The translations under genes and the position numbers were made by a program. This document shows, piece by piece, positions 8,094 to 45,505 of a DNA stretch of 64,000 nucleotides. Position 1 is the first letter of the stretch. The number at the start of each line of letters is the position of its first letter. Under the pieces are notes generated by a model. That model saw nothing but the letters and a program-made list of their open reading frames with translations. It was not told the origin of the DNA and ran no database searches. The DNA is from Escherichia phage vB_EcoM_MM02, in sequence record MK373784.1. One strand, given 5' to 3'.

Positions 8094-8315
8094 TCATCGT
8101 TTCCACCATTTCTTAACTTGAAATGAATCGACCCACACGAGTTGTTTTGGGTCTGCCTTTACAATAGGCGGACAAATTTCTGTAATAGAACCGTCGTGAT
8201 ATTCCTTTTCAGAAATTTTAACACAAAGAGGACCTCCCAATTTAAGGGTGAACCCTGCGTTCAGCTTCAGACGTTTAAACTTTGTTTGAACTAGCGCCAT
8301 TAATGATGTCCTCAA
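8094..8315 (-). CDS. Hypothetical small protein
   Basis: 73-aa ORF; true start probably an internal Met because it overlaps the next ORF. Confidence 0.3.
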   Translation of the reverse strand: MRTSLMALVQTKFKRLKLNAGFTLKLGGPLCVKISEKEYHDGSITEICPPIVKADPKQLVWVDSFQVKKWWKR

Positions 8316-11509: not shown

Positions 11510-11688
11510 GACTTAATTTCCTTCGCAATTGAACAGAAGATACCACGGTCACAAAGCATTTCACCAATTTCTGGATATTTGATTGAACGGTACCAAACAT
11601 CCAGGCTTGAAACTCTGGTTATCTGTATGGCATTACCATTGACAGAATAGTACTGGTCAACCTTAATTTCTTTATCTTCAATTGTCAT
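11506..11688 (-). CDS. Hypothetical small protein
   Basis: Likely start MTIEDKEIK with GAGGA SD; the upstream extension overlaps a promoter cassette. Confidence 0.35.
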   Translation of the reverse strand: MTIEDKEIKVDQYYSVNGNAIQITRVSSLDVWYRSIKYPEIGEMLCDRGIFCSIAKEIKS

Positions 11689-11854
11689 TTTATTTTCCTC
11701 TATAGTAGATGGTTTAATCTTAACACATCTATTGAGGATGTAAACTGTTTTATGAAAATATTTTTTGATTTGAGAGGGGCACAAGGAGATAGTGAAGTGA
11801 AGATTCCAATGGATTATATTAGAAATGAGATAAAGAAGACCAGGCGGCACCTGG

Positions 11855-26433: not shown

Positions 26434-26663
26434 CGATTGTGTTTTAAATGTTGATAAAGTTCTTCAACTTGTTTTGGGTCCAAAACAATTAGGTCATTTT
26501 CTTGGCGAAGATAAATCCATCCATTATCCCCAGGACCATTTTTACAAAACATCACCACCATATCATCATCTTCAGCGCTTTCAGGTAAAAGTTCAAGTAC
26601 ACCGTCTTCAGATTTTCCAGTATAATCGTAAAGCATAATATCCTCACATAATCTCGTTAACAT
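26430..26663 (-). CDS. Hypothetical protein
   Basis: 77-aa ORF. Confidence 0.4.
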   Translation of the reverse strand: MLTRLCEDIMLYDYTGKSEDGVLELLPESAEDDDMVVMFCKNGPGDNGWIYLRQENDLIVLDPKQVEELYQHLKHNR

Positions 26664-26823
26664 ACATTTGCAATTCGGTGTGGGCTTCAGCCATCTTTTT
26701 CATAGCTCTGTTAATGTCGATGTCTCCATCTTCGCAACCATGAGCATTTTCCCAATCGGATACAGAATTAGCATACTCTTCAATCAAAAACATCAACTTA
26801 GAAATCTTTTCTTTACGTGTCAT
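26644..26823 (-). CDS. Hypothetical small protein
   Basis: Likely start MTRKEKISKL with GAGGAG SD; the upstream extension lies inside a promoter cassette. Confidence 0.35.
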   Translation of the reverse strand: MTRKEKISKLMFLIEEYANSVSDWENAHGCEDGDIDINRAMKKMAEAHTELQMYVNEIM

Positions 26824-26829
26824 AACGTT

Positions 26830-26879
26830 CTCCTCTAGTAAGTAAGGACTACTATAACACAACCTGAGGAGAAGTAAAC
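26830..26879 (-). promoter_or_regulatory. Promoter cassette with SD-containing inverted repeat (ctcctc/gaggag)
   Basis: GTTTAC at the distal end; the 3' arm of the IR carries the GAGGAG SD of the downstream ORF. Confidence 0.45.
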
Positions 26880-26894
26880 TGATAGATGCCAAAA

Positions 26895-26918
26895 AGCCCC
26901 AACCATAAGGAAGGGGCT
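26895..26918 (-). terminator. Structured terminator-like hairpin (agcccc..ggggct with internal loop) followed by T-run on minus strand
   Basis: Downstream of the rI stop; a near-identical element recurs at 42243..42264. Confidence 0.5.
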
Positions 26919-30016: not shown

Positions 30017-30475
30017 CTAGATTTTAATCACTGCTTTAGAAGCTTTTCCTGGTAGTCGTTTATTGTTAATAATAGCCATTCTGCATTGAAGAGTCTTCAT
30101 TTTGAATGCCGGATTTTCGCGACAAACTGTAAGTCCTAACCAAAGATTTCCGTCAGTTATTTCTAAACGGCCTGGACGATACTCGACACCTTCGACAAAA
30201 TCTTCATCAACATCTGGACGTGCCGGCATTGATAAAAATTCTGCAACTTCTTTAACGTGATTTTTTACTTTATGAAATAATTCAAAAACGTAATTCTCAT
30301 CTATTTCTCTCTGGATGGCACGATCTAAGAGATGTTGAGAATACTTGATATGAAAGCCTGGTAGTCCAAGAGACTTTGCAGCATCTTTTATACCGACATT
30401 TATTTTGCGGAACTCCGTTTCAAAGATTCGACGGAGTTTATTACGGCGGATAAAAACTTCCGAATTGATAGTCAT
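30017..30475 (-). CDS. regB: Endoribonuclease RegB
   Basis: MTINSEVFIRRNKLRR... recognised as T4 RegB; ATG at 30475 with GAGGAG SD. Confidence 0.85.
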   Translation of the reverse strand: MTINSEVFIRRNKLRRIFETEFRKINVGIKDAAKSLGLPGFHIKYSQHLLDRAIQREIDENYVFELFHKVKNHVKEVAEFLSMPARPDVDEDFVEGVEYRPGRLEITDGNLWLGLTVCRENPAFKMKTLQCRMAIINNKRLPGKASKAVIKI

Positions 30476-30483
30476 TTTGATTT

Positions 30484-30532
30484 CTCCTCTAGTTGACAAG
30501 TCTATAGTAACACAACTAGAGGAGAAGTAAAC
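30484..30532 (-). promoter_or_regulatory. Promoter cassette with 12-bp inverted repeat sequestering the regB SD
   Basis: GTTTAC, 17-nt spacer, TACTAT; IR arms ctcctctagttg/caactagaggag; the 3' arm is the regB Shine-Dalgarno. Confidence 0.5.
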
Positions 30533-30831
30533 TACTCTTTGAAAGGAATTAACTTTTTAACTGCTTTAGATACTTCGTCACGAACCTGATGGAAGTTCTT
30601 GAGCTGTTCAAGGCGTTGTTCGTAATACGCAATCTCATCTTCTTCAAGACAATCGTCAGCGTCTTCTTTCAGATATGCCTTGTACTCATTAAAGAGGGCC
30701 CATAGGCGGTTCTCAAAGTCATCAAGGCTTTGAATTTTCTTGTGCTTCAGAACAAGGCCAAAAGGATTGCTTTCAGTTATGCGTCTAGATGCTTCATAAT
30801 GAGTTCCAAAGCCTGATAGGATTTGAGCCAT
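30532..30831 (-). CDS. Hypothetical protein
   Basis: 99-aa ORF. Confidence 0.4.
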
Positions 30832-31679: not shown

Positions 31680-31988
31680 TCAATTAGAAAATAAATTTAT
31701 CCAAGTTTTTTCTTTAATCAAAAATGGGTCGGAATTAAACGCCATTAAACTTTGAGTGATTAATCCCTTAAATGGCCCATCAATAAATTCCATTTTGAAA
31801 TGCGGAATACTAGTCATCAACCGTGCATTAGGAGCAGTACAAAGAACCTGCTGCCCTGCGAACGGACCTTTAGTCAAACGATATCGTTTAGGTTTAAAAT
31901 GGTAAATCTCGTAATTTTCTACAAGGGCCCTTTTATTGCATACTGGGCTGTTATAACAATATTCAAAAACTTCAATAGTGGTCATCAT
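31680..31988 (-). CDS. Hypothetical protein
   Basis: 102-aa ORF. Confidence 0.4.
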   Translation of the reverse strand: MMTTIEVFEYCYNSPVCNKRALVENYEIYHFKPKRYRLTKGPFAGQQVLCTAPNARLMTSIPHFKMEFIDGPFKGLITQSLMAFNSDPFLIKEKTWINLFSN

Positions 31989-32560
31989 TGCATTCCAATC
32001 ACAAAAAATTGAGGACGAGCATTACCGCCGATGCAATATTTGCTTTTGCAACAATGTTGGACTGTTTTAATATGTACATTGTAAATCTTATCCATATCAG
32101 GAGCTTTAATAGGCTCGTCAATTATATACAGAATACGAGAAAGCGTTAATCCACGGAATTTAGAACCTTCATTGCCAATAAAACTACGAACAGAATCGGT
32201 AAATAAACGGAATCGAATATCGTCGCTAGAATATCGAGAAAATTCTTTTTCAATGTTGCCAGCAGAAATTTTAGCATAAGCTGAAGTATTAGAAAGAACA
32301 ATAACTGTTCCGCCATCATACAGCCAATTAGCAGCAAAGTTAGTCACAGCAATTGATTTACCTGATTGTCGGCCGCCGTCTAAACGAAGTGTACAGTACT
32401 GCTTGAGTACGTCTTCAAATGGTGGGACATAACCGTTCTTACAAATTTCTTCTACTCTAGCATCAGAATGGTGTGTAAAAGCATTCATCAGGGATAGATA
32501 AGGTCCAGTTAAAAATGTTCTCATATTATTTCTCTTAAGGTTGGGGCCATTCCGTGGCAC
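31985..32560 (-). CDS. Hypothetical protein with P-loop-like motif
   Basis: 191 aa; GGRQSGKS. Confidence 0.4.
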   Translation of the reverse strand: MPRNGPNLKRNNMRTFLTGPYLSLMNAFTHHSDARVEEICKNGYVPPFEDVLKQYCTLRLDGGRQSGKSIAVTNFAANWLYDGGTVIVLSNTSAYAKISAGNIEKEFSRYSSDDIRFRLFTDSVRSFIGNEGSKFRGLTLSRILYIIDEPIKAPDMDKIYNVHIKTVQHCCKSKYCIGGNARPQFFVIGMQ

Positions 32561-32637
32561 ATGAATTGTCCATTTCTGTATTTACCCCTCCAAGTAATTA
32601 TGAATATACTATCACAATTCTAGGAGAAAGTAAACTG

Positions 32638-32940
32638 TTATTTACCTTTAATTACTTTAGCTGCTTCGATAGCCGCTTGCTGAAGGTCATCCATAGACAT
32701 ACCGAATTTAGAAGCAAAGTTATCAATTTTCTTTTCGACAGCATTCAAAGGCTTGGCCTGTTTACCTTCATTAGCGCCAGGAAGAGCGAGAATACGCTCT
32801 TTGTCAATATAAAGGCTTACAAGTTTCTTACGGTCTTTATCGGACAAATCATGAAATGAATGAGCCTTTTTATTTATAGCGGCTTCTAATTTACCTGCAC
32901 TCACTCGCGCTTCAGTAATAAATTCTTTATATGTTTTCAT
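32638..32940 (-). CDS. Internal (capsid-packaged) protein, IPII/IPIII-like
   Basis: N-terminal MKTYKEFITEA capsid-targeting sequence; T4 ipII/ipIII position next to denV. Confidence 0.65.
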   Translation of the reverse strand: MKTYKEFITEARVSAGKLEAAINKKAHSFHDLSDKDRKKLVSLYIDKERILALPGANEGKQAKPLNAVEKKIDNFASKFGMSMDDLQQAAIEAAKVIKGK

Positions 32941-33004
32941 TTTTTGTTTCCTTGTTTGTTTTGATAGAGTAATTATACCATATTAATACTTAAGCGTAAA
33001 CAAT

Positions 33005-33265
33005 TTAAGCTTTACCGCCAGAAATAATTCCGAAGTTGTTAAAATCGTATCCAATATCGTCAACATCTACTTTAGGATTTACTACAACATAAGCAATTTC
33101 ACTACGTTTTGCATAGGTGTTGATTTCTTTACCATCGCCACCTAAGAAAGAATACCCATTACGTTTTAATGAGCCAAAGTCTTCGGCATCACCAATGAAA
33201 GCTTTAACTTTAAATTTAGGACCTTTGGCATCTGCTTCAACGATAAATTCTTGATACATTTTCAT
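33005..33265 (-). CDS. Internal protein-like (CTS-bearing)
   Basis: N-terminal MKMYQEFIVEA. Confidence 0.55.
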   Translation of the reverse strand: MKMYQEFIVEADAKGPKFKVKAFIGDAEDFGSLKRNGYSFLGGDGKEINTYAKRSEIAYVVVNPKVDVDDIGYDFNNFGIISGGKA

Positions 33266-33271
33266 TTTTCC

Positions 33272-33685
33272 TTAGTAAATTGATTTACCATAGTATTTGT
33301 ACCAAGTCGGACGTTGAGCAATTTTTTCATCTAAGCGTGCTTGACTTATCGCAATGGACGCTTCGGACGGGACGTAATTATTACGAAATTCTACAGGAAT
33401 GTCGGAAATATCCTGGACAGTCGTGTCCTTGATTTTGAAACCACGTTTCAAGCATTCAGCGATTAGCTCGATTTGACGTAAACGTAAAAATTCGAGTTTG
33501 TCGTAAAAGAATGTTACGTGACCTGTGCCTAAGATAAATGTTGGAGAGATTTTAAAATCCTTTACACGTTTACCGTTTTGAACATGTTTACGGACTGCAC
33601 CAAATACGCGTGGTAATTCACGATACTCAGCCATAAGATGTTGGTCGGACAGTTCAGAAACAAGTGTTAAATTGATACGAGTCAT
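33272..33685 (-). CDS. denV: Endonuclease V (pyrimidine-dimer glycosylase) DenV
   Basis: [31 protein letters not shown]... recognised as T4 DenV; 138 aa from ATG at 33685. Confidence 0.9.
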
Positions 33686-33690
33686 AATTT

Positions 33691-33742
33691 CCTCCAAGTA
33701 GTTGATGAATGTATAGTATCAAAACCCTTGGAGGAAGTAAAC
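33691..33742 (-). promoter_or_regulatory. Promoter cassette with inverted repeat sequestering the denV SD
   Basis: GTTTAC, TACTAT-like -10; arms cctccaag/cttggagg, the 3' arm being the denV Shine-Dalgarno. Confidence 0.45.
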
Positions 33743-33743
33743 A

Positions 33744-34025
33744 CTATTTTTCTGAAGCGCCTGAAATATATTTTTCAAGACGTTGTTTCATCAGCGAGCC
33801 GTTCTTAGCGATTTCTTCTGGTTTATCGCACATACGCAACAAGGCTTCAAGCTTAGCGATATCGCTGGTACGTTCAAATTTGCGAGTATCTATCTTACTA
33901 GCAAGTTCAGAAATACGTGCTAATAGACTTTCAGCTTCAACCAAAGCTGCACCTAGCTTAGTTGCAAATGTGTCAGTAGCTTCGTTAAGAATAGATTCTG
34001 ATAAAAATTCACTATATGTTTTCAT
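33744..34025 (-). CDS. Internal protein-like (CTS-bearing)
   Basis: Starts [11 protein letters not shown]; its ATG overlaps the e stop (ATGA). Confidence 0.5.
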
Positions 34026-34510
34026 ATATACGCTTTCCAAGTTCCTGTTTTAAATGTTGAGATTACGCGTTTCGCGCGATTAGGTGTCTGACGATACCAT
34101 TTAGATTGGGCTAGATTTACTGCCGCTTCATCCCAACGTTTCTGTTGAAGCATACGAAGAGAATTAGTAAAACCGGCGACGCCTGATACACCCATTTGGA
34201 AGACCATATTGACCAATGCACACCGACGAACCGCATCTAAAGAATCATATACCGGTTTAAGTTTAGCATTACCCAAGATTCCGCGAACGGCTTTATCAAC
34301 GTCTTCATTAAATAGCTTTTCAGCCTCATCAAGGGTAATTGTACCGTTGCATTTACGTCCGATCATTCTGTCAAGTTCAGCTTTAGCTACGGCTAAAGAC
34401 GGGGTCTTTGTTACTAAATGGCCTATGCCAATAGTCCAAAAGCCTTCGGTGTCTTTGTATAAAGTCAGTCTAAGACCTTCGTCATTACGAAGCATTTCAA
34501 ATATATTCAT
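34022..34510 (-). CDS. e: Lysozyme (endolysin) e
   Basis: [31 protein letters not shown]... recognised as T4 lysozyme; 162 aa from ATG at 34510. Confidence 0.9.
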
Positions 34511-34512
34511 AA

Positions 34513-34536
34513 TACCTCCCACGTTTATAGGAGGTA
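34513..34536 (-). promoter_or_regulatory. Hairpin sequestering the lysozyme SD with late-promoter-like TATAAAC in the loop
   Basis: Minus-strand TACCTCC-TATAAACGT-GGGAGGTA immediately before the ATG; matches the transcript-specific translational control described for T4 gene e. Confidence 0.55.
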
Positions 34537-34544
34537 TTTATTAC

Positions 34545-35003
34545 TTATAGGAGTGTAGTGAGCACCTTATATAATGATTTGCCCATTACATATTCCCATT
34601 GAGAAGGTTTAATTAAAGCGAATGCATCAAATTCAGGAATCTGTCGTCCGTCCGGGAATGCATGATAGGAATTACAAACACTGTTTCTGAATTGCTCGTG
34701 CTCTACAGGGATGGTATATAGGAACAGATGAATATTCTTATTGTCTGAGTAATGATGTTCACCTAGGTCTTTCAGGAAGGCAGGGTCATATTGTGTAAAC
34801 CCAGTTTCTTCTTCGCATTCACGAATAGCGGCTTCAATAGGAGATTCGCCAGGTTCGACACGGCCTTTAGGAATATCCCACCGATGAGCTAATGCACCTT
34901 TAGGACGAGAACCAGTTACACGGCCCATGAATAACTCTTTATCTTTTGACATGAAGATAATACCGGCTGATAGCTCTTTCACTTTATTTTTCTTACTCAT
35001 CAT
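34545..35003 (-). CDS. nudE: Nudix hydrolase NudE
   Basis: 152 aa; Nudix box GRVEPGESPIEAAIRECEEETG; downstream of e as in T4. Confidence 0.8.
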   Translation of the reverse strand: MMSKKNKVKELSAGIIFMSKDKELFMGRVTGSRPKGALAHRWDIPKGRVEPGESPIEAAIRECEEETGFTQYDPAFLKDLGEHHYSDNKNIHLFLYTIPVEHEQFRNSVCNSYHAFPDGRQIPEFDAFALIKPSQWEYVMGKSLYKVLTTLL

Positions 35004-41643: not shown

Positions 41644-42147
41644 TCATTTATTTTTAATTTTGCAAATTTTTTCTGCTTCAGCAATTGCAGCGTCAATGAT
41701 GCTTTGTGCAATTTTATTACTAGTTGACCTGGCAATCACACTAAGAACAATTTCTTTTTCTTCACCACCCCAACCCCAAGTCCTTTGTTCGTGGGTACCT
41801 TTAACTACAGCTGAAACTTCAACAGAACGTCCACCATCAGAAGTTTTAACATCTACAACCCAATCACCATCTTTCTCTTCTACCCTTGATTTATCCCAAG
41901 AAATACTAATATATGATTCGCCGTCAATAGAAGTCGCCGGGTTTTTCTCTACCGTAAGACCTTCACTTTCCAGCCATTCAATAGTATTTGCGCATAAATC
42001 AGAAGAACACCTCATCGGAAACCGGCAAGATTTTTCACCTTTAGATGCTGCATCGTACATCTTTTCCAAAATACGCTTTTGCACGTTTTTAAAAATAGTT
42101 TCAGCAGATTCTTCAGATTTTTTATTCAGTTCAGTGTAAAGACTCAT
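41644..42147 (-). CDS. Hypothetical protein
   Basis: 167-aa ORF. Confidence 0.45.
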   Translation of the reverse strand: MSLYTELNKKSEESAETIFKNVQKRILEKMYDAASKGEKSCRFPMRCSSDLCANTIEWLESEGLTVEKNPATSIDGESYISISWDKSRVEEKDGDWVVDVKTSDGGRSVEVSAVVKGTHEQRTWGWGGEEKEIVLSVIARSTSNKIAQSIIDAAIAEAEKICKIKNK

Positions 42148-42242
42148 AACATTTTCCTCTATGGTTGATAAGTCTATAGTATCATGTCCTTAGAAGAAGT
42201 AAACATCTTTATGAAATATTTTTATGCCCTAGATACCAAAAG

Positions 42243-43479: not shown

Positions 43480-43556
<77 letters not shown>

Positions 43557-43559
43557 GAT

Positions 43560-43634
43560 TGGTGACCCTGGCTGGTTTCGATCCAGCTACCTATCAGTTA
43601 TGAGCTGACAGCTCTCCCATTGAGCTACAGGGCC
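43560..43634 (-). tRNA. tRNA with CAT anticodon (Ile2 or Met type), CCA encoded
   Basis: Hand-folded cloverleaf: acceptor GGCCCTG/CAGGGTC, D stem GCTC/GAGC, anticodon loop CTCATAA, T stem GCTGG/CCAGC, 3' ACCA. Confidence 0.7.
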
Positions 43635-45428: not shown

Positions 45429-45505
45429 TTTATTTCCTTGAGGTTGTTTATTTGATAGGATGATAGTAACACACCATCATCCTTATGTAAACTGTTTTGT
45501 GAAAA

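Follow-up and report, generated by a model that had tools for sequence, protein, structure and literature searches.

The hairpin mechanism of phage T4 gene e is textbook knowledge. Hairpins that sequester a ribosome-binding site (RBS) and enclose an internal promoter have been described for e, soc, 49, I-TevI, I-TevII, I-TevIII, segB and Aeh1 mobE (McPheeters et al. 1986, as reviewed in PMC3014915 and PMC2988022), and the lists in the reviews also hold 39, 25 and 26. All genes known to use RBS sequestration are late genes, according to one review (PMC2988022). Translation of long T4 e transcripts is ~100-fold lower, and the conservation of the e hairpin among T4-type phages has already been published (PMC3014915). 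A second described system is the promoter-early stem-loop (PeSL) cassette, found in T4-type phages (PMC2839356, Arbiol et al. 2010; PMC4122927, Comeau et al. 2014). Here, these systems are compared with the leaders of regB and denV in a 64,000-nucleotide (nt) stretch of Escherichia phage vB_EcoM_MM02 (MK373784.1; the whole stretch is called the window), starting from the cassette at positions 30484-30532 before regB. The two leaders probably belong to T4-type early sigma-70 cassettes of the PeSL kind in which a complement of the Shine-Dalgarno sequence (anti-SD) follows the -35 element, so that the SD would be hidden in read-through RNA only.

Early promoters are on record for both T4 regB and T4 denV (PMC3014915, PMC1702504), and early promoters are switched off 2-3 min after infection (PMC3014915). 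The regB section of the same review describes the early promoter and RegB self-cleavage only, with no hairpin (PMC3014915). For the T4 denV promoter, the 5' end has been seen by primer extension. T4 denV RNA probed in vitro showed no structure around its GGAG, which resists RegB owing to the bases on the 3' side of that motif, and no hairpin in long transcripts is mentioned where denV RNA is treated as a substrate of RegB (PMC1702504). A T4 omics paper states of RegB only that the protein appears early. Literature searches found no T4 start-site or ribosome-profiling data, and the T4 record AF158101 is without promoter or stem-loop features for the region. Possible stem-loops before denV and a few neighbouring genes were reportedly noted by Valerie et al. 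in 1986.

The window derives from a T4-like phage (Tequatrovirus). The region around the cassettes shares 99.6% identity with Shigella phage JK36 and has matches in hundreds of Tequatrovirus records. The regB, denV and e genes and an open reading frame (ORF) of 59 amino acids (aa) are all encoded on the minus strand, with the gene order tk - vs - regB - ... - denV - e as in T4. The regB leader reads GTTTAC-TTCTCCTCTAGTTG-tgt-TACTAT-agacttgt-CAACTAGAGGAGAA-atcaaa-ATG on this strand, and the 14 nt directly after the -35 element are perfectly complementary to the 14-nt stretch that includes the SD. The elements of the regB and denV leaders are as follows.

30527-30532, minus strand: regB -35 element GTTTAC, its first base overlapped by the TAG stop codon (30532-30534) of the upstream vs.3-like ORF
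30513-30526, minus strand: regB 5' arm (anti-SD) TTCTCCTCTAGTTG, within the -35/-10 spacer
30504-30509, minus strand: regB -10 element TACTAT, in the hairpin loop
~30496-30498, minus strand: predicted regB start site, placed from the -10 position
30482-30495, minus strand: regB 3' arm CAACTAGAGGAGAA, containing the SD GAGGAG (30484-30489); ATG at 30475
30017-30475, minus strand: regB coding sequence, 152 aa, 77% identical to T4 RegB
33737-33742, minus strand: denV -35 element GTTTAC; the stop codon TAG of the upstream ORF is at 33744-33746
33727-33736, minus strand: denV 5' arm (anti-SD) TTCCTCCAAG, in the promoter spacer
33713-33718, minus strand: denV -10 element TACTAT, in the loop; predicted start at ~33705-33707
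33689-33698, minus strand: denV 3' arm CTTGGAGGAA, containing the SD GGAGG; ATG at 33685
33272-33685, minus strand: denV coding sequence, 137 aa, 91% identical to T4 DenV

In both leaders, the 5' arm is located between the -35 and -10 elements and is therefore upstream of any start from that promoter. With a start predicted 6-8 nt downstream of the -10 element, transcription would begin 0-2 nt before the 3' arm. The initial annotation of the window had reported inverted repeats before regB, denV, the 59-aa ORF and e, and all four were found on the minus strand where it had located them. Its placement of the regB SD GAGGAG 8 nt before the ATG agrees with a direct reading of the sequence, and its 12-pair regB repeat is present at the described position with a greater length of 14 perfect pairs.

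The stability of each leader fold was compared with that of 200 dinucleotide-preserving shuffles. The regB leader folds with -21.6 kcal/mol and the denV leader with -19.1 kcal/mol (z score of -4.5 in each case), and none of the 200 shuffles of either leader was as stable (0/200). The e leader, which serves as the described counterpart, forms a perfect hairpin of 12 pairs with -16.3 kcal/mol (z score of -5.0; shuffles as stable, 0/200). Its elements are as follows.

34511-34538, minus strand: e leader hairpin, ortholog of the experimentally studied T4 e hairpin; e ATG at 34510
34527-34538, minus strand: e 5' arm AATACCTCCTAT, which pairs with the 3' arm
34511-34522, minus strand: e 3' arm GTGGGAGGTATT, containing the SD
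34522-34529, minus strand: late-promoter-like element TATAAACG, inside the hairpin and not a sigma-70 -10 element

The comparison with gene e drawn in the initial annotation is apt, as the leaders share their geometry, down to an upstream stop codon that lies a few nt ahead of the 5' arm. The accompanying statement that the -10 element sits in the loop applies to regB, denV and the 59-aa ORF; the e hairpin holds the late-promoter-like TATAAACG instead of a sigma-70 -10 element. The late-promoter motifs of e (34522-34549, minus strand) deviate from the T4 consensus TATAAATA, with TATAAACG at the proximal position and AATAAATA and TATAAGTA at the distal positions.

The regB and denV loci of related phages were collected from IMG/VR, and T4 itself was added. 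Arms were anchored on the CTCC/GGAG core by script; a MAFFT alignment of the leaders lost the register of the 3' arms. In these leaders, more than 12 different stems stay paired through compensatory changes. The regB stems include TTCTCCTCTAGTTG/CAACTAGAGGAGAA in the window, TTTTCCTCTTGACTG/CAGTTAAGAGGAGAA with two G-U pairs in T4 and, in further leaders, TTTCTCCTCTTTATG/CATAAAGAGGAGAAA, TCTCCTGTAAG/CTTACAGGAGA, ATCTCCTTTTAGT/ACTAAAAGGAGAT, ATCCTCATTTG/CAAATGAGGAT and CTCCTCTTG/CAAGAGGAG. The denV leaders show the variants CTCCAAG, CTCCTGTAG, CTCCGTTTG and CTCCTGTG, each with its complement present. Many denV leaders adopt a second geometry, in which the 5' arm consists of the end of the -10 element and the next 6-7 nt (for example, GATGTCTTCC/GGAGGACATC and ATGTCCTCC/GGAGGACAT). 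The 5' arm is upstream of the predicted start in both geometries.

The pairing is specific to each leader. Among 36 unique leaders, helices between promoter region and SD region scored 18.9 in cognate and 12.0 in non-cognate combinations (permutation p < 1e-4), and 27 of the 36 had an empirical p <= 0.02 against 1000 shuffles of the promoter region. Inward of the CTCC/GGAG core, cognate stems extend by 4.4 pairs on average and non-cognate stems by 1.3 pairs. The inner stem positions use three to four Watson-Crick pair types (position 2, for example: CG 8, GC 9, TA 8). Sequence conservation was also examined in 12 clusters of close relatives, where variable columns numbered 2/265 in the arms, 1/164 in the promoter hexamers and ATG and 42/293 in the rest (Fisher p = 1.3e-10). 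This puts the arms on a par with the promoter elements in conservation and shows that they are under purifying selection.

These results bear on the possibility that the complementarity arises by chance between pyrimidine-rich spacers and purine-rich SDs. Two window cassettes with the -35 element ending at 26879 and 42204 fold no better than their shuffles, and shuffled spacers already produce the pattern at a rate of ~10%. For regB, denV and e, chance is refuted by the shuffle, cognate-pairing, covariation and conservation tests: no shuffle in 200 reached their energies, regB alone has 14 perfect pairs, cognate pairing exceeds non-cognate pairing at the significance given above and the arms are conserved like promoter hexamers. 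Chance is accordingly a most improbable account of the pattern as a whole.

The consequence of the pairing was predicted with model transcripts, namely a long RNA that starts 10 nt before the -35 element and a short RNA that starts 7 nt after the -10 element. Across 63 unique leaders of regB and denV, the predicted probability of an unpaired SD had a median of 0.00 for the long and 0.53 for the short RNA, and the long-RNA value was below 0.2 in 53 of the 63. The terminator scan detected no terminator-like site between the upstream ORF and the cassette at either regB or denV in the window.

Leaders without an anti-SD arm are found before regB in RB49-like phages (leaders L017 and L122-124) and before denV in jumbo phages (350-kb T4-like; L040, L047 and L048). 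These armless leaders are the only ones with a clear terminator hairpin adjoining or overlapping the promoter; the arm-bearing regB leader L010 has a weak terminator-like match ~130 nt upstream. The anti-SD arm and the terminator look like alternatives for insulating a gene from upstream transcription. The terminator hairpins are GC-rich and were observed before regB in L017 and L122-L124 and before denV in L040, L043, L047 and L048. In the jumbo phages, the terminator stem includes the -35 sequence TTGAC (GGGTTGACTTCGGTCAGCCC, then TTTTT), which forms a compact terminator-promoter overlap.

The gene e mechanism built on early sigma-70 promoters is the best reading of the regB and denV leaders, and we place its probability at roughly 0.6. 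RNA from any promoter further upstream would cross the cassette and carry both arms. Such a long RNA would fold into a hairpin of 10-15 base pairs that buries the SD of the next gene, and ribosomes would be blocked. RNA from the cassette promoter would begin ~7 nt beyond the -10 element, at the base of the 3' arm, and would leave the SD free in the absence of the 5' arm. Translation of regB, denV and about one-quarter of the genes behind early cassettes would be tied to their own early promoter and insulated from read-through. Since early promoters are off at 2-3 min, RegB and DenV would be made in the first minutes only. In the long RNA, the cistron left untranslated would probably also become a Rho target, and the cassette could gain an indirect attenuator function as a side effect. 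For this phage, we infer from the sequence where transcripts start, whether and how much read-through RNA is made and how translation responds.

The initial annotation had proposed that long transcripts hide the SD and short ones free it. For regB and denV, the proposal is supported by a predicted SD accessibility of ~0 versus ~0.5, the conserved pairing and the lack of an intervening terminator. Its extension to the 59-aa ORF is weaker, given a z score of -1.1 and an intrinsic terminator upstream.

Several observations weigh against the gene e-like reading. The start site in this phage was placed from the position of the -10 element. The three weaker window hairpins are individually non-significant in the shuffle test. 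The pattern at nrdC.8 is present in T4 and absent in the window, and it is also absent from a relative of a 167-aa ORF described below. Furthermore, cassettes move between genes as units, so part of the covariation reflects inheritance of whole palindromes. The cassette that precedes T4 denV is nearly identical to the cassette that precedes regB in L107-111 and L121, and the window cassette at 32635 is the one that precedes denV in leader L035. Whole-cassette inheritance leaves the purifying-selection evidence standing. Selection at the RNA level is only suggested by the mismatch types, with 16 G-U versus 6 A-C in 46 unique cassette stems (p = 0.052); the numbers are 9 versus 5 in the regB and denV stems alone. 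A final point concerns the upstream stop codon, which is located 0-13 nt, mostly 3-9 nt, before the 5' arm in the leaders of the first geometry (type I). At this distance, a terminating ribosome might melt the lowest part of the stem, with some coupled translation as a result.

Hairpin-mediated translational coupling is established in other phages and operons. Applied to regB and denV, it would mean that a ribosome ending the upstream ORF melts the SD/anti-SD pairing at the stem base, and that the long RNA yields the downstream protein only when the upstream ORF is translated. The stop codon spacing of the type-I leaders fits this explanation. T4 e has equal spacing (the nudE stop codon precedes the 5' arm by 7 nt), and the ~100-fold lower translation of its long transcripts argues against simple coupling. 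In the denV leaders of the second geometry (type II), the arm is 24-28 nt past the stop codon and beyond the reach of a terminating ribosome, and stems of 10-15 base pairs exceed what such a ribosome would open. Coupling as the main role of the hairpin is therefore improbable.

Genomes that carry near-identical cassettes twice were also observed. The denV leaders L020, L021, L024 and L053 and the regB leaders L107-L111 and L121 come from the same genomes and share nearly the same cassette (ATCTCCTGTAG ... CTACAGGAGAT). The copies are ~2-3 kb apart and constitute direct repeats, possible mediators of deletion or mini-circle formation, as proposed for PeSLs.

The mobility of the cassettes raises the question of whether the inverted repeat is a DNA- or transcription-level feature that overlaps the SD incidentally. 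A terminator or attenuator, a recombination site and the product of template switching that perfects quasi-palindromes are candidates for such a feature. The PeSL papers describe stem-loops in the -35/-10 spacer or over the -10 element and interpret them as terminators and recombination sites (PMC2839356, PMC4122927). Eight other window cassettes have a hairpin around the -10 element that leaves the SD alone, cassettes pass from one gene to another and the G-U versus A-C mismatches show no clear favour for RNA. The stems at regB and denV have different properties. They lack a U run after the 3' arm, which is followed by AAATCAAAATG at regB and ATTATG at denV, and the terminator scan makes no call at either site; a terminator role is therefore unlikely, and the identity of the SD-type stems as intrinsic terminators was rejected. 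The loops of 17-28 nt are poor for cruciforms. The 3' arm falls on the SD in ~84% of regB and denV leaders versus ~28% of cassettes generally, the second geometry, with its 5' arm elsewhere, still targets the SD or AUG, and the arm is absent exactly where a real terminator is present. The large loops and the regularity with which the SD is targeted are hard to reconcile with a purely DNA-level role, and the DNA- or transcription-level reading as a whole is improbable. An RNase III site was also considered and rejected, as the stems are too short. No known Rfam family describes the cassette hairpins: an Rfam scan of the whole window at the gathering score matched two transfer RNAs (tRNAs) and nothing at the cassettes. 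These two, at 43483-43634 on the minus strand, are the only tRNA genes in the window, and the corresponding region of T4 has eight.

The hairpin should also shield GGAG from RegB, which requires single-stranded RNA. This shielding could be its main role, with the block to translation as a by-product: GGAG in the SD would be hidden from RegB or other ribonucleases in long polycistronic RNA, so that read-through (middle-mode) RNA survives and short early RNA is cut. RegB cleaves GGAG in single-stranded RNA only and is readily inhibited by structure, GGAG is part of the 3' arm in the regB, denV, 26823 and 32635 cassettes, and the stem-carrying phages all encode RegB. Such protection is compatible with translational insulation. 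It cannot be the sole role, because stems also hide non-GGAG SDs (GAGGAA at 42154-42161 and at ~11697, and TGAGGAT in the regB leader L112) and because the T4 denV GGAG is RegB-resistant anyway through its 3' sequence and still keeps the hairpin. RB49-like phages, moreover, have regB without such stems. Shielding as the primary function is thus unlikely, although less so than coupling or a DNA-level role.

The gene e-like arrangement extends to other early cassettes to a limited degree. A scan with the pattern GTTTAC-N16-18-TAnnnT, followed by an SD and ATG, identified 19 cassettes on the minus strand of the window; one more is located at 32635 (19-20 in total). A hairpin with its 5' arm in the spacer is present in 13-14 of the 19-20. 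Its 3' arm is the SD in five or six and ends at the start site in eight, and six window cassettes have no clear hairpin. Pairing between spacer and SD occurs in the cassettes with the -35 element at 42204, 33742, 30532, 26879, 11745 and 32635; the initial annotation does not name those at 42204, 11745 and 32635. The cassettes not yet described are listed here.

26828-26879, minus strand: cassette of the 59-aa ORF (26644-26823; ATG at 26823), weak hairpin
26874-26879, minus strand: its -35 element GTTTAC, followed by the 5' arm TTCTCCTC at 26866-26873
26851-26856, minus strand: its -10 element TATAGT; 3' arm with SD GAGGAGAA at 26828-26835
26891-26918, minus strand: intrinsic-terminator-like hairpin (AGCCCC...GGGGCT, then TTTTT) immediately upstream of the 26879 cassette
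42154-42204, minus strand: cassette before the 167-aa ORF (ATG at 42147), weak (z score of -1.45)
42199-42204, minus strand: its -35 element GTTTAC, followed by the 5' arm TTCTTCTA at 42191-42198; the spacer pairs with the SD
42176-42181, minus strand: its -10 element TACTAT; 3' arm TAGAGGAA at 42154-42161
11697-11745, minus strand: cassette before a 55.6-like ORF (ATG at 11688), with GTTTAC at 11740-11745 (z score of -2.5)
11734-11737 and 11697-11700, minus strand: its outer pairs, CCTC with GAGG
11726-11731 and 11706-11711, minus strand: its inner helix, TAGATG with CATCTA
32585-32635, minus strand: the 32635 cassette, with GTTTAC at 32630-32635 (z score of -2.7)
32620-32629 and 32585-32594, minus strand: its 5' arm TTTCTCCTAG and 3' arm CTTGGAGGGG

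The leader of the 59-aa ORF folds with -15.0 kcal/mol (z score of -1.1), and 30 of the 200 shuffles were as stable, which is chance level when taken alone. A terminator precedes this cassette, and little read-through is therefore expected there. Only three close relatives each were available for the 59-aa and 167-aa ORFs, too few for covariation, and in one relative of the 167-aa ORF the cassette is a different one that lacks the anti-SD arm. The 32635 cassette is followed by an ATG that opens an ORF of 12 codons, whose peptide matches an internal stretch of T4 vs.8 (32555-32635, minus strand). The rest of the vs.8-like ORF (191 aa; 31985-32560, minus strand) is listed with a GTG start. A frameshift, insertion of the cassette into vs.8 or a wrongly chosen start may account for this arrangement.

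A second hairpin class was observed on the minus strand in the cassettes with the -35 element at 45492, 45137, 41146, 38332, 37037, 26430, 22256 and 11043. In this class, the partner of the spacer is the stretch that runs from the -10 element up to the start site, as in TTGGTAGGACTAT/GTAGTCCTATCAA, and the SD is left free. The stems differ from those of the T4 orthologs (ipI, trna.4 and mobD.2) yet are paired, and they therefore look selected. They may act as terminators, as RNA stabilisers or at the DNA level.

The gene order of the window differs from that of T4 at 32638-34040 (minus strand), where an ipII-like ORF (ATG at 32940) is located downstream of denV rather than upstream. There is no ipIII between e and denV, and an unrelated ORF (33744-34040, minus strand) occupies its place. 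The altered order of internal-protein genes fits cassette-mediated shuffling of these genes.

When the window and T4 cassettes are combined, the SD is hidden only in the long RNA in 14 of 50 (~28%), compared with 9.9% for shuffled spacers (p = 2.6e-4). The pattern occurs in ~84% of distinct regB and denV leaders versus 5 of the 19 window cassettes and roughly 30% of those in T4; the feature therefore follows the gene and not merely the cassette type. In the early regions of T4 (118 kb), the flagged genes are motB.2, modB, 55.4, nrdC.8, regB, denV, 30.8, alc, rnh and an ORF in the ndd region. Besides regB and denV, the predicted T4 cases have their ATGs at 8161, 13130, 41170, 53885, 130253, 136278, 150704 and 166749 (AF158101).

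A broader proposal is that anti-SD spacers constitute a general T-even insulation code, which ties a set of early genes to their own promoter and whose arms travel with PeSL cassettes. This generalisation is speculative and we consider it doubtful, if somewhat less so than RegB shielding as the primary function. If true, the T4 set would comprise regB, denV, modB, motB.2, alc, nrdC.8, 30.8, rnh and others. The code would help to explain the abrupt end to production of many early proteins, and also how RegB destroys early transcripts and spares middle ones over the same genes.

If the gene e-like reading of regB and denV is confirmed, it would add a cis-acting layer of control in which the promoter of origin of an mRNA decides whether a cistron is translatable. 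It would offer a simple reason for the sharp end of RegB and DenV synthesis after the shut-off of early promoters, and the PeSL stem-loops of about one-quarter of cassettes would be translational insulators rather than terminators. The mechanism predicts that RNA abundance is decoupled from protein synthesis, which bears on T4 transcriptome and proteome data (PMC9697503), and the flagged T4 genes make the prediction testable in the model phage. An anti-RBS encoded in the promoter spacer would also provide a design principle for a gene that is expressed from its own promoter only.

The closest known system is that of gene e. There, the SD is in the 3' arm, transcripts from the gene's own promoter lack the 5' arm, and upstream transcripts contain the whole hairpin with a stop codon a few nt ahead of its 5' arm. 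The leaders of regB and denV have the same layout, with a predicted start. The two systems differ in their promoters. The internal promoter of gene e-type leaders is late (gp55, TATAAATA) and the genes are late, whereas the promoters of regB and denV are sigma-70 early promoters with the arm in the -35/-10 spacer. Because only e has the late-type TATAAACG, regB and denV represent a variant and not a plain member of the gene e type. The expected timing is also opposite: the gene e hairpin delays translation until late, and the regB and denV hairpins would confine it to the first minutes.

The 19-20 minus-strand cassettes of the window match the PeSL module, which consists of an A/T-rich stretch, TTTACW-N17-TAYWAT, a stem-loop and an SD with ATG. 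A stem-loop between the -35 and -10 elements or over the -10 element and the exchange of modules between loci, both described in the PeSL papers, are also seen in window-type cassettes. The same papers treat the stem-loop as a terminator or attenuator and as a recombination site, and for the T4/PST pair they draw it just upstream of the promoter. The SD-type stems of the window have no U tract. The words 'translation' and 'ribosome' are absent from the main text of the 2010 paper (PMC2839356), and the available text of the two PeSL papers says nothing of the stem pairing with the SD (PMC2839356, PMC4122927).

RegB autoregulation, through cleavage of the GGAG in the SD of regB itself (PMC3014915), works on this very SD and also limits RegB to a short early burst. 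Cleavage acts on the accessible short RNA, whereas the hairpin would make the long RNA both untranslatable and uncuttable. The terminators before or over the early promoter in RB49-like and jumbo T4-like phages apparently serve the same purpose at the same place before regB and denV. Their insulation is transcriptional, with a GC-rich stem and a U tract and without involvement of the SD, unlike that of the anti-SD arm.

The initial annotation had regarded this extension of the e mechanism to regB and denV as not known to have been reported. SD sequestration tied to an early promoter was not found in the T4 reviews PMC3014915, PMC2988022 and PMC2988021, in agreement with that view; the cassettes and their stem-loops are published, and the e mechanism is in the textbooks. 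What appears to be new is the proposed early-promoter version of the mechanism, which is well supported by sequence comparison.

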